A stretch of DNA of 63,370 nt, filler included, from a bacterium (GTDB taxonomy: Bacteria > JAMORN01): NCBI GenBank assembly GCA_027063545.1. It is 15 parts of 15 records of this genome, joined end to end, with 100 filler letters (N's around TTAATTAATTAA, not from the genome) between each part and the next. Parts side by side here need not be neighbours in the genome. Positions count along the whole stretch, not along the records: positions 40,724 to 43,170 come from JAMORN010000065.1; 14 more parts are not named here. One strand, given 5' to 3'. Positions within the stretch are counted from its first letter, which is position 1. Each line of letters opens with the position of its first letter. This document shows, piece after piece, positions 11,385 to 45,050 of the stretch. Below the pieces are notes generated by a model, which saw only the letters and a program-made list of their open reading frames with translations, was not told the DNA's origin and did not search any database. A program made the translations under genes and the position numbers.

Positions 11385-11484
11385 NNNNNNNNNNNNNNNN
11401 NNNNNNNNNNNNNNNNNNNNNNNNNNNNTTAATTAATTAANNNNNNNNNNNNNNNNNNNNNNNNNNNNNNNNNNNNNNNNNNNN
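11385..11484. other. Artificial contig linker N44-TTAATTAATTAA-N44 (first of 14)
   Basis: Same 100-nt spacer also starts at 22640, 24560, 26476, 28385, 30281, 32168, 40624, 43171, 54080, 55950, 57811, 59671 and 61522; stops in all six frames. Confidence 0.99.
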
Positions 11485-35590: not shown

Positions 35591-37885
35591 TTATTTATTA
35601 TAATTACTTAATGTTATCCCCACACCGCAATCAGGAATTGCTGAAAAAAATGTAAATTTAATATAATGATGATCTGCTTGTGGTCCAATTAAAAATATAT
35701 ACCAATCAGGACCTCCTGTTGCAGATGAAATTAAAGTACCACTTCCATCTGGTGAATACCATTCTACTTGTACTTTTGGTATTTGAGCACCATTACTATT
35801 AAATTCTATTTTCCAAAATGGATTCCAATAAGGGTTTCCTTCGCCTGGATAAGATTTAGCCCATACATATAATTCATTGCTAGTATTTACATCTGTTGGA
35901 TATATAATATACTCTGTATTACAATCCCACTCCCTACATTTACATTTATCCGAGCCATCAGCACCAAGATAATGATCCCATGTAGCACAACCTCCTCCAC
36001 CACCTGCTATATCAAAATTCGCTGTAATATTCATATCTCTATTCATTACTATAGTTAAAGGATTATTAGTTGCTGTAGTATCTCCACTCCATCCGGAAAA
36101 AGTATAACCAGTGTTAGGAGTTGCAGTTATAGTAACAGATGTCCCTTTTTTATAAGTACCACTTGCTGGATCAACACTACCATAGCTAGCATCTGGAGAT
36201 ACTGTTACATTTAAACTATAGGCCGGACAACCATTATAGTCAGCTGTTCCTGGATCATTTGGACACTCATCACAAGCATCTCCTATTCCATCTCCATCTG
36301 TATCTTCTTGATTTGGATTAGCATCATTAGGACAATTATCGCAAAGATCCCCCACATCATCATTATCTGCATCAGCCTGATCAGCATTAGAAACATCAGC
36401 ACAATTATCACACACATCACCTACCCCATCACCATCTGTATCTGTTTGATTAGGATCATAATCTTCAGGACAAACATCACAAGCATCTCCAATACCATCA
36501 TTATCCTGATCCTCCTGATCTGGATTGGCTACATTAGAACAATTATCTGTAGAATCAGGAACTCCATCATTATCAGCATCTGCAACTCCAATACTTCCTG
36601 AACCTGCCCCAGAAGTATCAGGAGACAATCCTGAAGAACTAATACCACTTCCTGATAAATCAGGTGTTACTCCATTTTGAGGCACAGGAATTACAATAGA
36701 GAATAATCTCCTTTCGAATTTATCATTAAATGCTAGCTGAATATTTCCTATTTTAAAAGTATCATTTAAAACCTTATTTAATTCTCTTCTTGTTCTAGCT
36801 AAAATTGAAACCTTTATTGCTCTTACAAATGGCTTTGCTGCACTCCAAGAGCTATAACCTAATTGAGATAATGTAGTATCTTCTGTAATATATTTATTAA
36901 GTTCATCACCAACCCAGTAATATCTTCCCAAACTTTTCTCTACAACCACTATATCTTTCATATAAAAAGTAGGAGTTACCACATCATTATTGTTAAAAGT
37001 AAATCCTAAATACATATCTGCTGTGGTATCCGCTGTAAAATAGAAATCTATCTTAATAAAATTTGTATCTAAATAATAAATAGATGCTATCTTCTTATAA
37101 AAACTTGCTGTTGTTGTCCATAATCCTAAACTTAAATCTTCATAAGTTGCACTAGAATCTTTATCACTTAATTTATCTTTTGCTATATAAAATTTTACAT
37201 AATACTTAGCACCTGCTTTTAATTTTAACACATTATTTGTATATAATATACTAGAACCATCTATGTATTGTTTATAATTAATCTGTCCTGTAGAAGTAAT
37301 TGTTAAATGCCCCTTTAAAGGATTCCAAAACCAATCACTTGAAACTGTAGAATTTCCTGTTTTTACCATGGTATCATTAGATCCCAATATACCAAACTCT
37401 ACTTGAAAAGCTTCAACATTTCTAACTAATGTGTAAGGAGTTCTGCCTTTATATGCATGCTTTATAGTTCTAGTTGCTGGATCATAATAAAAAGCCTCTG
37501 CTATAATAGTGTCTGGACTTCCATTCGAATTTAAACGTAAATATCTAATAGCTAAACTATCCCCTCTAGAAGCTTGTGTTGTAAAATCGTATTCTCTTAC
37601 TTCAAAAGAGCTTCCATCAGATAAAACAACTCCTGGATATACCCCTTTTACTATTGTCCCAGCACTATCATACATATAAGTTTTATAACCTGTATTTGAT
37701 ATTCTTTTTGCCAAAAAATTTATTGCATCTCTTGCATCCTCAACAGTAGTTTGAGAAATAGTTTGCTCCAAAAATCTCTTATTAGAATAAAAAAATGCTT
37801 GTAAAACAGCAGCTACCACTATAAAGGATAAAAAAGCATAAATTAAAAGTTCAATTAAAGTAACTCCTTTTTTAAATTTTTTCAT
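35591..37885 (-). CDS. PilW-like minor pilin fused to TSP3 repeats, an InlB-B-type repeat and a C-terminal domain
   Basis: [12 protein letters not shown] leader; [10 protein letters not shown] and [12 protein letters not shown] PilW motifs; DxDxDGxxDxCDNCP repeats; [19 protein letters not shown]. Confidence 0.8.
36224..36584 (-). repeat. Thrombospondin type 3 (Ca-binding) repeat tract in the PilW-like protein
   Basis: About five NPxQxDxDxDGxGDxCDxC units. Confidence 0.85.
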
Positions 37886-38316
37886 CGTACAACTCCTGTG
37901 AGGGTTATGGTTTTCTTATTATAAGCACCAGTCCCCCCCTGATACCATTCTATAGTCACTGTTATTCTTTTAGCTATACTACTAGTTGATAAAGGAGTAA
38001 TTTGAATTATTCTAATAAAAGTTTTTCCTGAAACTCTTACTGTATCAACAATAGGAGAGGTAGTAGCCTCAATACCCTCAGCTCCTATACCTCTATATGA
38101 AGCTATTGTTGATTTAGCTAAATCTGTAGCTAATTCTGTTCTATAACTCATTTCTATAAATTTATATCCTGCAACCTCCATAAGGAGAGCTTGAGATAAT
38201 GCCAAAGCGAAAATTACCATAGCCACTAAAAGCTCTAATAAAGAAGCTCCTTTTAATCTCTTATTTTTTATCTTATTACATAATATATTAAATCTCTCAG
38301 CCAAAAACATAAACAC
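37882..38316 (-). CDS. PilV-like minor pilin
   Basis: [16 protein letters not shown] leader with Glu5; [13 protein letters not shown] overlap with the next gene. Confidence 0.8.
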
Positions 38317-38459
38317 GCCTCCTTTATATCCTTTCTAAATATATTATAAATTTATATATATAGGAATTCAATAGAAAATTCTAATATAGATATATTTTTT
38401 GAATTAATATTGAACTTTATTAATATTGAATTTAAAAGAAATTATAATTAAAAAAATAA

Positions 38460-38532
38460 TAGCGGCGTTGGGACTCGAACCCAAGACCCAGGGATTATGA
38501 TTCCCTTGCTCTACCAACTGAGCTACGCCGCC
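38460..38532 (-). tRNA. tRNA-Met(CAT), elongator type
   Basis: Reverse complement GGCGGCGTAGCTCAGTTGGTAGAGCAAGGGAAT-CAT-AATCCCTGGGTCTTGGGTTCGAGTCCCAACGCCGCTA; paired position 1, no initiator GGG/CCC anticodon-stem end. Confidence 0.93.
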
Positions 38533-38684
38533 ATCCTAATAACAATCTCAACTTCTAGTACAGAAATATAATTTTTAAAATTGATTTTTTCAAGATTTTC
38601 AATATATAAAAAATAGTTAAAAATAACTATTACATTAAGTTGTGAATTTAATCATAACCATATCTTATTAATTACTAAATATTT

Positions 38685-38732
38685 ATACTATATATAGTAT
38701 TATTTATAAAAAAATACCACAATATATAGTAA
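38685..38732. promoter_or_regulatory. Tandem NrdR boxes
   Basis: ATACTATATATAGTAT (38685) and CCACAATATATAGTAA (38717), 32 bp apart, upstream of nrdD; consensus acaCwAtATaTwGtg. Confidence 0.85.
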
Positions 38733-38840
38733 TAAAATGTTTGACTTTTCTATTTTTTGTTTTTATTTATTTATTTTATCTAATACAGGTACTAAAAATT
38801 ATAGCAAACTATAAATAGCTAAAAATCAAGGAGATATAGT

Positions 38841-40999
38841 ATGTCTGTAAAAACTACAAAATTGAAATTTATAAAGAAAAGAGATGGAAGACTTGTAGCT
38901 TTTAATCCTGAAAAAATAGTAAATGCTATAATGAAAGCTCAAAAAGCTGTAGGATATGAAGATAGGCAAGAGGCAGAAAAAATTACAAAAAAAGTTATAG
39001 AAGTATTGGAGTTAATTTTTAAAGGTGAAGATGCGCCTACTGTTGAAAATGTACAAGATTTAGTAGAGAAATTCTTAATAGAAAGTGGAAATGCTGATGT
39101 TGCAAAAAGATACATCTTATATCGTCATCAACATGCAGAACTTAGAAACATTAAGAAACTTCTTGAAGGTGCTATAGAGTTAGTGGATTCATATCTAACA
39201 AAAAGTGATTGGAGAGTAAGAGAAAATTCAAATATGAGTTTTTCTCTTCAAGGATTAAATAATCACATATCCTCACAAATAACCCAATATTACTGGTTAC
39301 ATAAAATATATCCTCCTGAAATAAGAGAAGCTCATCTATCAGGGGATTTTCATATTCACGATTTAGGGCTCTTATCTGTATATTGTTGTGGTTGGGATCT
39401 TCAAGATTTACTTTTTAGAGGATTTGGTGGTGTTCCAGGAAAAGTTGAATCTAAACCTCCTAAACATTTTAAAACAGCTCTTGGACAAATTGTAAACTTT
39501 TTCTACACAATGCAAGGGGAAGCAGCTGGAGCTCAAGCTTTAGCAAATTTTGATACATATTTAGCTCCTTTTGTTGCTTATGATAATCTATCTTACAAAG
39601 AAGTTAAACAGGCTATGCAAGAGTTTATTTTTAATTTAAATATACCTACAAGAGTTGGTTTTCAAACACCATTTACAAATCTAACAATGGATTTAAAAGT
39701 ACCTAAAAATATGGAAAATCAACCTGTTATTATTGGGGGCAGTTTCTGGGATGACCATGTATATGGAGAATTCCAAAAAGAAATGGATATGATAAACCGT
39801 GCCTTTGCTGAAGTTATGATGGAAGGAGACGCAAAAGGTAGAATCTTTACATTCCCTATTCCAACATATAATATCTCTAAAGATTTTGAGTGGGAAAATC
39901 ATAATCTTGATCCTATATGGGAAATGACTGGAAAATATGGAATTCCTTATTTTGCTAACTTTATAAATTCAGATATGGATCCTGAAGATGCAAGAAGTAT
40001 GTGTTGTCGTTTAAGACTTGATAATAGAGAATTAAGAAAAAGAGGAGGAGGTCTTTTTGGTTCAAATCCATTAACTGGATCTATAGGGGTGGTAACAATT
40101 AACCTACCTAGAATTGCTTATCTATCAGAAACAGAAGAAGAATTTTTTGATAGACTAGCTAGACTTATGGATTTAGCAAAAGAATCTCTAGAAATTAAAA
40201 GAAAAGTATTAACTAAATTTACAGAAGAAGGGCTATATCCTTACTCTAAAGTTTACTTAGAGGGAATAAAAAGACGCCAAGGAGACTACTGGGCAAATCA
40301 TTTCTCTACAATAGGCCTTGTTGGAATGAATGAAACTTGTCTTAATCTATTTGGGGAAGATATAACATCTGTAAAAGGTAGAGAGTTTGCTATTAGAGTA
40401 CTTAAATTTATGAGGGATAGAATTCAAGAATATCAAATTGAAACCGGAAATTTATATAACTTAGAAGCTACACCAGCAGAAGGTACATCATATAGACTTG
40501 CAAAGATAGATAAAGAGAAATTTCCTGATATTATAACATCTGGTAAAGATAAGCCTTATTATACTAATTCTACTCAATTACCTGTAAATGCTACAGAAGA
40601 CATATTTGAAGCTTTAGAACATCNNNNNNNNNNNNNNNNNNNNNNNNNNNNNNNNNNNNNNNNNNNNTTAATTAATTAANNNNNNNNNNNNNNNNNNNNN
40701 NNNNNNNNNNNNNNNNNNNNNNNTTACAATCTTTATATACAGGAGGAACTGTTTTACATATATTCTTAGGAGAGAAAATTGATGATGTTGATACTGTTAA
40801 ATATTTAGTTAAAACAATTGCTGAAAATTACACATTACCTTATTTTTCCCTTACACCAACATTTAGTATCTGTCCTATCCATGGATATATACCAGGAGAA
40901 CATGCTGAATGTCCTATCTGTAAAGCTGAAAAAGAACAAAAATTAAAATTAGAATTGAAAAAATTAGAAAAACAATTACAAATGTTAGAAGGAAAATAA
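38841..40999 (+). CDS. nrdD: Class III (anaerobic) ribonucleotide reductase catalytic chain, lacking the glycyl-radical loop; spans the linker at 40624..40723
   Basis: ATP cone (IKKRDGR), HIHDL, YCCGW, RSMCCRL, EATPAE, YYTNST; after the gap LQSLYTGGTVLH...CPIHGY...CPIC-KAEKEQKLKLELKKLEKQLQMLEGK*. Confidence 0.93.
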
Positions 41000-41000
41000 A

Positions 41001-41165
41001 ATGAATAAAGAGGAATTACTAAAAAAAATAAAAGAAATAAAAAAAGAAATGAAAAATATAAGAGGTACAGAGACTAAAGTTGTATATAGAATCGGATGTA
41101 GAGAATTTGACAAAGACCACACCATTGAAAATGGTGTTATAATAAACTTAAATAACAAAAAATAA
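41001..41165 (+). CDS. 54-aa paralog of the NrdD glycyl-radical subunit lacking the RxxGY motif (not in the ORF track)
   Basis: MNKEELLKKIKEIKKEMKNIRGTETKVVYRIGCREFDKDHTIENGVIINLNNKK*; starts 1 nt after the nrdD stop, AAGGA RBS; 16 of first 30 aa identical to 41184..41381. Confidence 0.75.
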   Translation: MNKEELLKKIKEIKKEMKNIRGTETKVVYRIGCREFDKDHTIENGVIINLNNKK

Positions 41166-41183
41166 TCAAAAAAGGAGTGTAAA

Positions 41184-41381
41184 ATGAACAGAGAAGAATT
41201 AATGAAAAAGATTCAAGAATTAAAACAAGAGCTTGAAAATGTAAAAGGTACACCTACTGAAATCTACTCAAGAGTTGTAGGATATTATAGACCTGTTCAA
41301 CAATGGAATGATGGAAAGCAAGAAGAATTTAAAGAAAGAAAAGTATTTAAAGTATCAACACCTGTAAACTCTAATACATAA
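41184..41381 (+). CDS. Stand-alone glycyl-radical subunit of class III RNR
   Basis: TEIYSRVVGYYRPVQQWNDGKQEEFKER is the NrdD C-terminal radical loop; AAGGAG RBS; N-terminal heptad helix. Confidence 0.92.
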   Translation: MNREELMKKIQELKQELENVKGTPTEIYSRVVGYYRPVQQWNDGKQEEFKERKVFKVSTPVNSNT

Positions 41382-41383
41382 TT

Positions 41384-42127
41384 ATGATTACAGAAAAGTT
41401 ATCTAAACAAGAAATAAACTCCCTGGAAGCCTTACCTATTTATGGCTTTCAGGGAGTAACTCTTATAGATTTCCCTAAACATCAGGCATCTATAGTTTTT
41501 ATTGGTGGATGTAATCTTAGATGTCCATATTGTCATAACAAAGAATTAGTATTTTTAAATCCTAAAGATAGACTTGATTACAAAAATATTTTAGAAAAAA
41601 TAGAGAAACGAAAAAAAATAATAAATGGGGTATCTATAACTGGTGGAGAACCTCTATTATATGATGAAATCTTTGATTTTATAAAAGTATTAAAGGAAAA
41701 ATTACAATTAGAGGTTAAAATTGATACAAACGGAACTAGGTATAAAAGATTGGAATATATAATTGAAAATAAACTTGTTGATTACATTGCAATGGATTTT
41801 AAAACAATACCTTCAAAATACAAATTACTGGGAATCCAATCAGAAGAAGATTTGGAAAGTATTCTTATCTCTGTAGACATTCTTAAAAAAACAGATATCC
41901 CAAATGAATATAGACTTACTGCTGCGCCTTATATTATTGAAAAGGATGATCTGGAAGAATATGGAAGCATAGTTAAAGGTGGGCAAAAACTTTTTATACA
42001 ACAATTTTATCCTAGAAATACCCTATCCGATGAATATCTAAATGTTAAGCCTTATAATATAAAAGAGCTAGAAAAATTTGCTCAAATACTATCAAAATAT
42101 ATTCCTACTAAAATTAGAGGAATATAG
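41384..42127 (+). CDS. nrdG: Anaerobic RNR activating enzyme (radical SAM)
   Basis: TLIDFP, GCNLRCPYCHN, ITGGEP, KIDTNG, DYIAMDFK. Confidence 0.93.
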   Translation: MITEKLSKQEINSLEALPIYGFQGVTLIDFPKHQASIVFIGGCNLRCPYCHNKELVFLNPKDRLDYKNILEKIEKRKKIINGVSITGGEPLLYDEIFDFIKVLKEKLQLEVKIDTNGTRYKRLEYIIENKLVDYIAMDFKTIPSKYKLLGIQSEEDLESILISVDILKKTDIPNEYRLTAAPYIIEKDDLEEYGSIVKGGQKLFIQQFYPRNTLSDEYLNVKPYNIKELEKFAQILSKYIPTKIRGI

Positions 42128-42226
42128 ATTATAAACTTTTTGATTTAAATTCTTAACTTTATTATTTTCAAATATAAAGAAAGATAAAAATAATTTTTTT
42201 TTATTATTTGAAGGAGGATAAAAAAA

Positions 42227-43170
42227 ATGGGTCTATTGGACTTTTTTAATATTTTTAATTTTTCAAATTATGATATGGCTATAGATCTAGGTACTGCCAA
42301 TACATTAATATATGTAAAAGGTAAAGGTATTGTTATTAATCAACCTTCTGTGGTTGCTATAAATAAAGATACAAAGGAAATAATTGCTGTCGGTAAAGAA
42401 GCAAAGGAAATGATTGGAAGAACTCCTAAAGGTAAAGAAGCTATAAGACCTCTTAAAGATGGAGTTATTGCCGATTTTACTCTTACTACGTACATGTTAG
42501 ATTATTTTATTAAGCAAGTATATAAAAATAGATTTATCCATCCTAGAGTTTTAGTTGCTGTTCCATCTGGAATAACAGAAGTTGAAAAAAAAGCTGTTAT
42601 AGAAACTGTGGAAAATGCTGGTGCCAGAGAAGTATTCTTAATTTCAGAGCCTATAGCTGCTGCTATAGGTGTTGATATACCTATAGAAAAATCTTCTGGA
42701 AATATGGTTATTGATATAGGTGGTGGAACAACTGAAATTGCGGTATTATCTCTATCTGGAATCGTTGCATCTGAAAGTTTAAAAGTAGCAGGTGATGAAA
42801 TGAATAAAGCTATAATGAGTTATTTAAGATCAAACTATAGAGTATCTATTGGAGAAAATACTGCTGAAGAAATTAAAATAAAAGCTGGTAGTGCTGTTGA
42901 GTTAGAAGAAGAGATTACTGTTGAAGTAAAAGGTAAAAGTACAACAACACCTACACCTATATATTTTCAAATATCTTCTAAGCAGATTAGAGAAGCTCTA
43001 CAAGAACCTATTAATAAAATTATAGAAGGAGTAAAAAGAACTTTAGAAAAAGTACCTCCAGAGCTTGCATCTGATATTTATTCTAAAGGAATTATTATGA
43101 CAGGAGGGGGTAGTTTATTGAAGGGTCTTGATAAAAAAATATCTGAAGAAGTAAATCTTCCTGTAAGGGT
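42227..43170 (+). CDS. mreB: Rod shape-determining protein MreB; 3' truncated
   Basis: AIDLGTANT, RPLKDGVIADF, DIGGGTTE, MTGGGSLL. Confidence 0.96.
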
Positions 43171-43270
43171 NNNNNNNNNNNNNNNNNNNNNNNNNNNNNN
43201 NNNNNNNNNNNNNNTTAATTAATTAANNNNNNNNNNNNNNNNNNNNNNNNNNNNNNNNNNNNNNNNNNNN

Positions 43271-43860
43271 CTTTTACAGTTTTATCAGTACCAGGACATT
43301 TATCTTTCACATCAGGAATACCATCTTGGTCATTATCAGGATCAGGACAACCATCTTTGTCTTGGAATCCATCTATATCTTCTGGTTGGAACGGACATTT
43401 ATCATGTTTATCGTCTATACCATCATGATCAGAGTCTTTTATATTGTCAGGACATCCATCACTATCATCTATACCGTTTTTTGTTTCTGGTTGATTTGGA
43501 CATTTATCAAGTTGATCAGGAATACCGTCTTTATCATTATCTAGATCAGGACAACCATCATTGTCTTGGAATCCATCTAAGTCTTCTTTTGTAGATAACG
43601 CATCTTGATCAGTACCAGGACATTTATCATCAACATCTGCTATACCATCTTTATCATTATCAGGGTCAGGACAACCGTCATCATCTTGGAAACTATCGTA
43701 GTCTTCAGGATCATTAGGACATTTATCTTTTTTATCAGGTATTTTATCGAGATCGTTGTCAAGGTCAGGACAACCATCATCATCTTGAAAGCCATCAAAA
43801 TCTTCAGGCTCTGTAGGACATTTATCATATCTATCATTTATACCATCTTTATCCTGATCT
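43271..43860 (-). repeat. TSP3-like DGCPD repeat tract
   Basis: At least five EDxDGFQDxDGCPD-type units running into the linker. Confidence 0.85.
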
Positions 43861-45050
43861 GGCGGAATAATAAACCAATGAAATGTTACCTGAGCACTAG
43901 CACCCAGTTTTGGAGGAACATGAGCATTTACTAAATAAATATTATTATTATCTTTTATATAATAGAGCCCATGATTTAAGTTATCTTTATATGTTTTCTC
44001 TGCAGCAGGATCATCATCATTTAAAACATATCTATCCTTTACTATTTCAGGAGAAGAAAAAGTTTTCATTATAGACATAATAATAGATGCATGAGGAGAT
44101 CTAACAAGTAATCCAAATTTTCCATTTAACTCGTCTTTAAAAAGATCATGATGATTAATTACATTAGACCACTCCATTGCTCCACTTAAAGAACCAAAAA
44201 AACCAAAACTAGGATGAGGACAATATTCAACCCCAAATTTTCCAAATATTTTATTGTCAGTATAAGATTTTGAATCCATAGAGGATCCTGTATTAGCCAC
44301 TCCAAGACCACCAACATTAAAGTGAAATCTTAGAAGTAAATCAGGGTTAACAGCTCCAACATCAAATGTAAGAGCAAGTAATGCTTTTAAAGCCCAAAGT
44401 CTCGAATGATTTGCTGTATATGTTCCAAATATAGCATTTTTATACCCAGGAAACTCTGGACCATCCATAGTAGCTTTCCAGTGGAATTGGGGATCTCTTA
44501 AAATATATCCTGTTTTTAAACCTGTAGCTGTTTTATTTGTAGGAACATAACCTGTAAAAACAAAAGCAAGATTTACTATTTGATTAGTAGGAACAGCTAA
44601 TTTTGTATTTATAAAGAAATCTCCAGTTCCTTTTTTCTCTAAATCTTGATTATTTACATCATAAACTTGATCCCAATAAGAGTAAACTCCTAAAGCAACG
44701 CTCCAATAATTAAAAAGTCCATAAGAGAAAAATACTGGAGCAAAAATTCCTAAAGTAGAATTTATTCTACTAGAAGCTGATGTTAACCCTGCTGCAACAT
44801 AGTCATCCCATGTAATATCAGCAGGATTATCTGTTCTTGTATAAGGAACTATTCCAATTTTATCCCAAGTGATTAATGGAGATACACCTATTGCCATTCT
44901 ACCTCTTTTCATTGTTTTAGCATCATAAAGATCTAAAATACCCCTTAAACCTTCATTATTAAATGAGATATCAGTGTATATATCAATATATCCCAAAATG
45001 TTGGATAAATAAACAAATACTAATAAAACACTATAAAAAATTCGTTTCAT
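43271..45050 (-). CDS. Outer-membrane protein with TSP3 repeats (OmpA-like architecture); 3' truncated
   Basis: Signal peptide, beta-barrel-like N-terminal region, then repeated CPxxPEDxDGFQDxDGCPDxDNDxDGIxD. Confidence 0.75.

Follow-up and report, generated by a model that had tools for sequence, protein, structure and literature searches.

[quoted passage not shown] Small non-catalytic subunits encoded beside a glycyl-radical enzyme are known from benzylsuccinate synthase, with its beta and gamma subunits (BssB/BssC), and from 4-hydroxyphenylacetate decarboxylase, with its gamma subunit (HpdC). These subunits are Cys-rich, bind [4Fe-4S] clusters, and have no relationship to the radical domain, whose accessibility or stability they are believed to govern. 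Small proteins that consist of little more than an interaction domain form another point of reference, as with the plant LITTLE ZIPPER, a microProtein with a zipper-like interaction domain that titrates its partner; to our knowledge, the known microProteins are eukaryotic and act mostly on transcription factors. In the available text of PMC9638782, a microProtein is defined as a small single-domain protein that is related to a functional protein and keeps its interaction domain.

Two further systems come closer to the enzyme considered here. GrcA, also called YfiD, is an autonomous glycyl-radical ‘spare part’ of pyruvate formate-lyase, as described in the available portion of PMC8683613. NrdJa/NrdJb of Pseudomonas aeruginosa is a split class II RNR; in the accessible part of PMC9669993, which cites Crona et al. 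2015 for it, an extra folded element at the end of NrdJa is thought to hold the second chain, and split domains are treated as distinct to class II RNR. Neither a split class III RNR nor a radical-less paralog of a radical subunit was found among the Creative-Commons papers of PMC and in bioRxiv, and the accessible parts of PMC11528403, PMC4390871, PMC12288474, and PMC9669993 do not describe them, although subscription papers and RNR family lists may mention a split NrdD.

The window analysed in this study, a stretch of 63,370 nucleotides in all, is made up of separate contigs chained by 14 identical linkers of the form N44-TTAATTAATTAA-N44, 100 nt each, and the locus described here lies on a contig of 2447 b at positions 40724-43170, which is JGI locus L068. 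Linkers sit, for example, at 11429, 22684, 40668, 43215, and 61566. In several runs of contig pieces along the window, each piece is a little shorter than the last, going from about 1.92 down to 1.85 kb, as though sorted by length; despite this apparent sorting, nrdD runs on across the linker at 40624-40723, about three residues short. The features of the locus are as follows.

38841-40622, + strand: N-terminal piece of the nrdD core, with ATP-cone and catalytic barrel, interrupted by an assembly linker (Pfam, NCBIfam)
40624-40723, no strand: non-biological linker N44-TTAATTAATTAA-N44, which interrupts nrdD (sequence)
40724-40999, + strand: C-terminal piece of the nrdD core, with the CPIH...CPIC metal site and the stop codon TAA at 40997-40999 (Pfam)
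40913-40990, + strand: K/E/L-rich heptad helix at the C-terminus of the core, the presumed docking (‘zipper’) helix (AlphaFold2)
40989-40993, + strand: AAGGA, the ribosome-binding site of ORF54, located within the 3’ end of nrdD and 7 nt before the ATG (sequence)
41001-41165, + strand: ORF54, 54 aa, a paralog, by sequence comparison, of the N-terminal helix of the small subunit, with another tail and no radical-glycine motif
41007-41057, + strand: codons 3-19 of ORF54, amphipathic helix, hydrophobic at 6, 10, 13, 17, and 20 (AlphaFold2 and heptads)
41067-41120, + strand: codons 23-40 of ORF54, family-specific conserved tail TxTK..YRIxCxE[FY]DK with the single Cys33 (comparison of ORF54 with its relative P0070)
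41119-41137, + strand: hairpin of doubtful significance, with a perfect 8-bp stem and a 3-nt loop, in the part of ORF54 that is not conserved (folding)
41172-41177, + strand: AAGGAG ribosome-binding site of ORF65 (sequence)
41184-41381, + strand: ORF65, a 65-aa stand-alone glycyl-radical subunit, consisting of a heptad helix followed by RVVGYYRPVQQWNDGKQEEF (Pfam NRDD)
41384-42127, + strand: nrdG, the radical-SAM activase (TIGR02495, Pfam)

In the N-terminal piece of nrdD, Pfam recognizes ATP-cone with E 5e-23 and, over profile positions 1-458 of 562, NRDD with E 6e-163, and NCBIfam recognizes NF006126 with E 4e-285; the C-terminal piece takes up the NRDD profile at positions 463-532 of 562 (E 8e-20), without the glycyl-radical loop. 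Because the profile stops at 458 and restarts at 463, and homologues read HQDxLQ, the residues lost at the linker number about three (consensus QDx). The end of the profile is found in ORF65, which matches Pfam NRDD (PF13597) at positions 532-562 of 562 (E 6e-10), covering RVVGY and WNDGKQEEF, and the NCBIfam NrdD models (TIGR02487) with E 5e-10 and 9e-9. The gene that follows, nrdG, scores above the cut-off of TIGR02495 (NrdG2, E 3e-53) and matches Pfam Radical_SAM (E 3e-22). A large ORF without the radical end is thus accompanied by a small one with the end of the NrdD model; therefore, judged from its domain matches, the locus encodes a two-piece (‘zipper-split’) class III RNR. In the AlphaFold2 model, the last 26 residues are confident, and residues 64-89 of the 91-aa C-terminal piece form a helix with block pLDDT values of 89-96. 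A reading made beforehand from the sequence alone had postulated a zipper on NrdD, and with this long terminal helix the core does have a candidate partner for it. Most likely, as far as can be deduced from the two helices, those of the core and of ORF65 zip the two pieces together.

The surroundings of the locus hold a tRNA gene (68 bits) just upstream of nrdD, at 38460-38532 (-), and two large proteins rich in Asp repeats of the DxDxDGxxD type, at 35591-37885 (-) and 43215-45050 (-). The former of these has a type IV pilin-like N-terminus and is followed by a 144-aa pilin-like ORF at 37882-38316 (-). Inside nrdD, at 39390-39445 (+), there is a sub-threshold match to the Na+ riboswitch (26.3 bits, with a gathering score of 40.5), most likely a chance match.

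The two-piece RNR is a more general and better supported feature than ORF54, which is a rare twist on it. Stand-alone radical subunits of small size are common: relatives of ORF65 at E ≤ 0.01 comprise 68 small proteins of 35-114 aa; one of them, named from Deferribacter desulfuricans, has 64 aa and is called ‘anaerobic ribonucleoside-triphosphate reductase’. Among the 80 metagenome loci returned for ORF65, which form a biased sample, 22 (two of them doubtful) carry the radical motif in a separate ORF of <130 aa. The zipper-split subgroup consists of L068, L069, L070, L071, and L074 together with the Deferribacter-like proteins. Here, a heptad helix comes after CP[IL]CKxEK at the end of the core, and another opens the small subunit; L069, L070, L071, and L074 have the same helix-stop-helix layout as the window. 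These four, of the five readable zipper-split metagenome loci, lead from the core directly to the radical subunit without an ORF54-like ORF, over spacers of 0 nt in L071, 12 nt in L069, 44 nt in L070, and 126 nt in L074. Three-frame translations of the 126-nt and 44-nt spacers revealed no ORF54-like remnant, and blastp of ORF54 and P0070 against the 3945 ORFs of the 80 loci found, besides radical-subunit helices, only the contig of the window itself. By these gene orders, ORF54 is not needed by the split enzyme, and the four-gene layout of core, decoy, radical subunit, and activase put forward in the sequence-only reading does not hold as a general system. The spacer of L074 (L074:669-794) is G/T-rich, with short repeated GGT/GAT words.

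A different type of split is seen in L110, L127, L131, L123, L138, and L140, in which the core ends right after ‘CPYEVPDE’ and the small subunit, of 58-70 aa, begins with ‘MKCKAxVE[VI]YSRVVGY’. From these ends, each chain seems to supply part of the second cysteine pair of the metal site. Immediately upstream of stand-alone radical subunits, genes for HNH-type endonucleases are found at L094:151-540 and L125:3520-3825, the matches being to Pfam HNH_3 (E 5e-11) and Endonuclease_7 (E 1.5e-26). The nrdD split may be linked to a free-standing homing endonuclease in some contigs, which are probably those of phages.

At the locus in the window, the ATG of ORF54 (41001) follows the stop codon of the nrdD core, TAA at 40997-40999, after a single A, and the stop codon of ORF54 lies 18 nt upstream of the ORF65 start. 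A 54-aa ORF coupled to nrdD by TAA-A-ATG with an AAGGA ribosome-binding site, and resembling the radical subunit without gaps, had been described in the sequence-only reading, and both descriptions were confirmed at 41001-41165. In a single BLASTP comparison, ORF54 and ORF65 are identical at 16 of 31 residues and positive at 28 of 31, ungapped, with E 6e-12. Since both proteins are K/E-rich, the match was checked against composition-preserving shuffles, none of which (0/20000) reached its score of 100, the shuffled maximum being 52. ORF65 is also the top match of ORF54 among the 235 other ORFs of at least 30 aa in the window, scoring 100 vs 40 for the next. Nucleotide identity between the two genes amounts to 78/118 over -25 to +93, and to 21/72 further on. 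The earlier observation that shared residues use different codons was likewise borne out (5 of 16, namely N2, E4, K9, I10, and E16), and the Nei-Gojobori method applied to the 31 codons gave dN 0.30, dS about 1.2, and pS 0.60, values made imprecise by the mere 16.7 synonymous sites available. The paralog dN/dS of 0.25, which comes from the same 16.7 synonymous sites, is dominated by the constraint on ORF65. By the likeness of the two proteins, ORF54 is a paralog of the N-terminal helix of ORF65, and the duplication is old, judging from pS 0.60, dS about 1.2, and dN 0.30.

The order core-ORF54-ORF65 is bridged, with no differences, by contigs from three public hydrothermal-vent DNA runs (X1, 40724-41375; X2, 40831-41329; X3, 40995-41252). 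Therefore, the tandem is not an assembly artefact of one data set, with the proviso that the three runs possibly stem from a single campaign or contain the source sample, so that their independence is uncertain. ORF54 is identical in all three runs, which is uninformative on selection.

Within ORF54, the likeness to the radical subunit covers the first 31 residues. Although ORF65 matches the NRDD models of both Pfam and NCBIfam, ORF54 gave no NRDD match at E ≤ 1 in Pfam or E ≤ 0.1 in NCBIfam; for Gly_radical (PF01228), neither ORF gave a Pfam match at E ≤ 1. Where ORF65 has RVVGY, ORF54 reads RIGCR and P0070 reads RIRCK. Arg30 and the following beta-branched residue of the motif are kept in ORF54, and its sole nearby Gly (G32) is not kept in the relative, where it is Arg. 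The WNxGKxxEF segment is absent, and the tail of ORF54 is no more like that of ORF65 than shuffled sequences are (p 0.47). Both the radical motif and the WNxGK tail had been reported missing beforehand, and indeed neither RVVGY nor WNDGKQEEF is present. Since a tail of its own replaces the radical loop, ORF54, as read from its sequence, cannot bear the radical. A Cys at the position of the radical Gly had been claimed as well; C33 does lie opposite that Gly in the ungapped register, but the placement depends on this register, and the tail is not detectably derived from the radical domain (p 0.47). A MAFFT alignment drew the tail as a radical domain with an in-frame deletion, a derivation that is not demonstrable at p 0.47. 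Outside the RNR family, the PDB profile search with ORF54 produced nothing below E 0.04, its matches being K/E helices, and the ESM Atlas held no usable match; across Pfam, NCBIfam, the PDB profile search, and the ESM Atlas, the tail has no detectable relation to known domains.

A second lineage bears on whether ORF54 is maintained. HMMER against 1,835,955,588 representatives returned, at E ≤ 0.001, just one protein besides ORF54, the 45-aa P0070 (E 7e-5), and a profile search of 5.8 billion clusters returned the same two clusters only. P0070 is identical to ORF54 at 18 of 40 residues and positive at 32 of 40 (E 1e-13). P0070 and P0071, which differs from it by one residue, are encoded on two ENA contigs of 1725 b and 3136 b. 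The contig of P0071, at 3136 b, is as long as that of P0002, whose sequence, that of a radical subunit, is 86% identical to ORF65; from this equal length, P0071 and P0002 very probably lie on one contig. The nearest full-length NrdG relative is 49% identical, and none lies on a 3136-b contig.

The tails of ORF54 and P0070 share YRIxCxE[FY]DK, with a score that 0 of 5000 shuffles reach, and P0070 carries one Cys, as does ORF54 (C33). The C-terminal tails of ORF65 and P0002 have 0 of 9 residues in common, which, from the sequences at hand, suggests that neutral divergence between the two organisms is saturated. When neutral evolution was simulated, an amino-acid identity of 45% was reached at about 0.35-0.4 substitutions per site, and both frames remained open with a start in 5.8% (at 0.3) and 2.4% (at 0.4) of 4000 runs, indels being ignored. 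Hydrophobic residues fill heptad positions 6, 10, 13, 17, and 20 of ORF54 (L, I, I, M, I), of P0070 (I, I, L, L, V), and of ORF65 and P0002. The tail motif, the frame retention in the light of the neutral simulation, and the hydrophobic heptads argue for constraint on ORF54, whose open frame and own tail motif are kept in the second lineage. By hand counts, ORF54 and P0070 agree at 18/40 residues vs 48/56 for ORF65 and P0002, or 14/31 vs 24/31 in the helix region, and on these figures ORF54 evolves much faster than the radical subunit. The last 14 residues of ORF54 are not conserved, and the P0070 ORF is 9 codons shorter. Taking these comparisons together, we regard it as fairly probable that ORF54 is a real, lineage-restricted gene.

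Searches of contig collections added no further member. Genome contigs scanned with ORF54 gave 599 pattern matches, and viral contigs scanned with the ORF54 family alignment gave 567, with none confirmed in either; metagenome contigs scanned with the same alignment gave 593 and again none confirmed, in a weak search that missed the contig of the locus itself (L068), which is present there. Phage records searched by tblastn at E ≤ 1 held no ORF54 match. With ORF65 as the query, viral contigs yielded 13 loci, none having the N-terminal helix, and with NrdG as the query, genome contigs yielded 67 loci, the best at 42% identity and none a close relative, with a small radical ORF only in L028.

The helix shared by the two paralogs bears on what ORF54 could bind. 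Modelled alone with AlphaFold2, ORF54 forms a helix over residues 3-19 (block pLDDT 86 and 78) followed by a low-confidence tail, and it has the hydrophobic residues at 6, 10, 13, 17, and 20 and the end xVKG/xIRG by which the zipper-type small-subunit subgroup (ORF65, P0002-P0006, L069, L070, L071, and L074) is recognized. The docking helix is therefore kept, as the sequence-only reading had it, in its hydrophobic heptads and in the modelled structure. Its companion claim, that ORF54 binds the NrdD zipper, fared less well. A complex prediction of ORF54 with the N-terminal and C-terminal core pieces gave an ipSAE of 0.42 vs 0.19 for the best control, rated as ‘weak support’, with runs agreeing in at least 71% of contacts and a partner pLDDT of at least 64. 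Of 80 solved complexes, 58 attain the mark that this result passes, as do 2 of 110 mismatched pairs; at ipSAE ≤ 0.60, it is attained by only 7 of the 80 solved complexes and by both passing mismatches, and the wording of the tool for such a weak pass is ‘more often wrong than right unless the guess was likely beforehand’. K/E-rich helices are, moreover, promiscuous in complex models. By hand count, the net charge of the helix is +4 in ORF54, 0 in ORF65, and +2 in the core. On these charges, pairing between ORF54 and the core is not obviously favoured electrostatically, nor is simple competition.

Our preferred, tentative explanation, which we consider possible without calling it probable, is that ORF54 is a real small gene encoding a docking-helix-only ‘microprotein’ that arose by an old partial duplication of the radical-subunit gene. 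An old tandem duplication of the 5’ end of that gene, comprising the ribosome-binding site and about 31 codons, would have given rise to ORF54, which would retain the amphipathic heptad helix; the helix of ORF65 most likely docks on the long C-terminal helix of the core. ORF54 might then occupy the docking helix of the core or pair with the helix of the radical subunit, and so could tune the number of cores loaded with a radical subunit, or it could hold the site during the exchange of a spent or oxygen-cleaved radical subunit. A narrower form of the proposal, in which ORF54 would sit on the core helix as a dead twin when no intact radical subunit is bound, gating loading or exchange after oxygen damage, seems to us rather unlikely. 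We infer translation, binding, and any effect of ORF54 on the enzyme from sequence; the effect could be inhibition, site-holding, or the addition of a third bundle helix. A decoy or placeholder role, as suggested beforehand, is plausible and unproven, and the shielding of active-site cysteines from oxygen, suggested along with it, found no support.

A decaying partial duplicate is a serious rival to the decoy reading. ORF54 would then be a non-functional relic, in which the ribosome-binding site and the 5’ third of the radical-subunit gene were duplicated and the frame ran into unrelated sequence, remaining open so far without any function. A family confined to two clusters, the absence of ORF54 from four of the five readable zipper-split loci, its fast evolution (18/40 vs 48/56 for the radical subunit), a C-terminal end that is unconserved and differs in length, and a tail unrelated to any known domain in the searches above speak for such a relic. 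It accounts less well for a tail motif kept across two lineages (0/5000 shuffles) when the tails of the radical subunits share 0/9 residues, and for five heptad positions that are all hydrophobic in both ORF54 and P0070; under neutrality, both frames would stay open in only about 2-6% of simulations with indels uncounted, and a paralog dS of about 1.2 implies long survival of the copy. We hold the relic to be somewhat unlikely. The same evidence of conservation, namely P0070, the tail motif, and the neutral simulation, applies equally to a third possibility, in which ORF54 is not a competitor but a structural or regulatory subunit, adding to a three- or four-helix bundle, or a ligand of NrdG through RIGC/RIRC. 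That stretch resembles the RVVGY substrate loop, of which Arg30 and the next beta-branched residue are kept, and a helix charge of +4, more basic than that of ORF65 (0), fits another partner at least as well as it fits the core helix (+2). We nevertheless consider such a role unlikely, as the Gly of RIGC is Arg in P0070 and other zipper-split enzymes manage without ORF54.

Two explanations dispense with the peptide. If ORF54 were a relay ORF, translation alone would matter: ribosomes would be passed from nrdD to ORF65 and the ratio of the products set, whatever the peptide. The spacing agrees with this, at 1 nt from the nrdD stop to the ORF54 start and 18 nt from the ORF54 stop to the ORF65 start, and tight coupling is the rule in the family, the gap between core and small subunit being 0 nt in L071 and 12 nt in L069; a relay would also explain an open frame in a drifting sequence. 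ORF65, however, has a strong AAGGAG site of its own, and amino-acid conservation in the tail motif and at the heptad positions would go unexplained, which makes the relay improbable in our view. Least credible is a non-coding stretch acting as an RNA element, an attenuator or a processing hairpin between the RNR genes. The perfect 8-bp hairpin at 41119-41137 is what speaks for it; by a rough estimate, chance would give about 0.06 such hairpins per 200 nt of this composition and about 0.7 in the whole contig. No T-run follows it on the + strand, however, and the fold energy is no better than that of shuffles (z -0.5; 57 of 200 fold at least as well). Apart from the tRNA and the weak match inside nrdD, there was no Rfam match at E ≤ 1 in 38300-42300. 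The protein likeness of ORF54 to ORF65 and P0070 is, in addition, in frame, and we give the RNA element almost no credence.

The radical-less paralog is a new element at this locus. That the radical subunit of a two-piece enzyme can come off suggests that such an enzyme is repaired by exchange, as pyruvate formate-lyase is with GrcA, and if the docking helix has a conserved copy without the radical, this would be a first hint at regulated occupancy of the docking site. If the narrower form of the proposal is true, with ORF54 as a dead twin on the core helix, no natural placeholder or dominant-negative subunit would be known before it from any glycyl-radical enzyme, and it would show directly that two-piece class III RNRs operate by exchanging the radical piece. 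Even as a mere relic, ORF54 would record how the small-subunit gene duplicates and mark the heptad helix as the module that survives. With just the core, NrdG, and two peptides, of 54 and 65 residues, the system is small enough to be tractable in vitro.

Compared with known systems, ORF54 is most like the stand-alone radical subunit itself, as represented by ORF65 and the Deferribacter desulfuricans protein, with which it shares 16/31 N-terminal residues, the heptad helix, the context of ribosome-binding site and start, and the position directly after the nrdD core. It is unlike that subunit in having no RVVGY, WNxGKxxEF, PF13597, or TIGR02487 and in carrying an unrelated tail with a conserved Cys. 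With BssB/BssC and HpdC, it contrasts in its single Cys and in being a paralog of the docking helix of the radical subunit. NrdJa/NrdJb resembles the RNR of the window in the division into a catalytic barrel chain and a separate C-terminal chain, but is a class II, cobalamin-dependent enzyme with no glycyl radical, and the available text of PMC9669993 describes no catalytically dead paralog of its second chain.

GrcA/YfiD offers a functional parallel. As seen in the available portion of PMC8683613, it resembles ORF65 in being a small protein of its own with kinship to a glycyl-radical domain, and it rescues a one-piece enzyme, whereas the RNR of the window is permanently in two pieces. GrcA also carries the radical glycine, which ORF54 does not, and is of a different family, since PF01228 gave no match. 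By analogy, the spare-part logic of GrcA may apply to ORF65, which would give ORF54 a possible role during exchange. In its make-up, ORF54 is like the microProteins: in 54 aa, it has only the interaction helix related to that of ORF65, with the radical domain absent, and putative competitive binding would complete the likeness.
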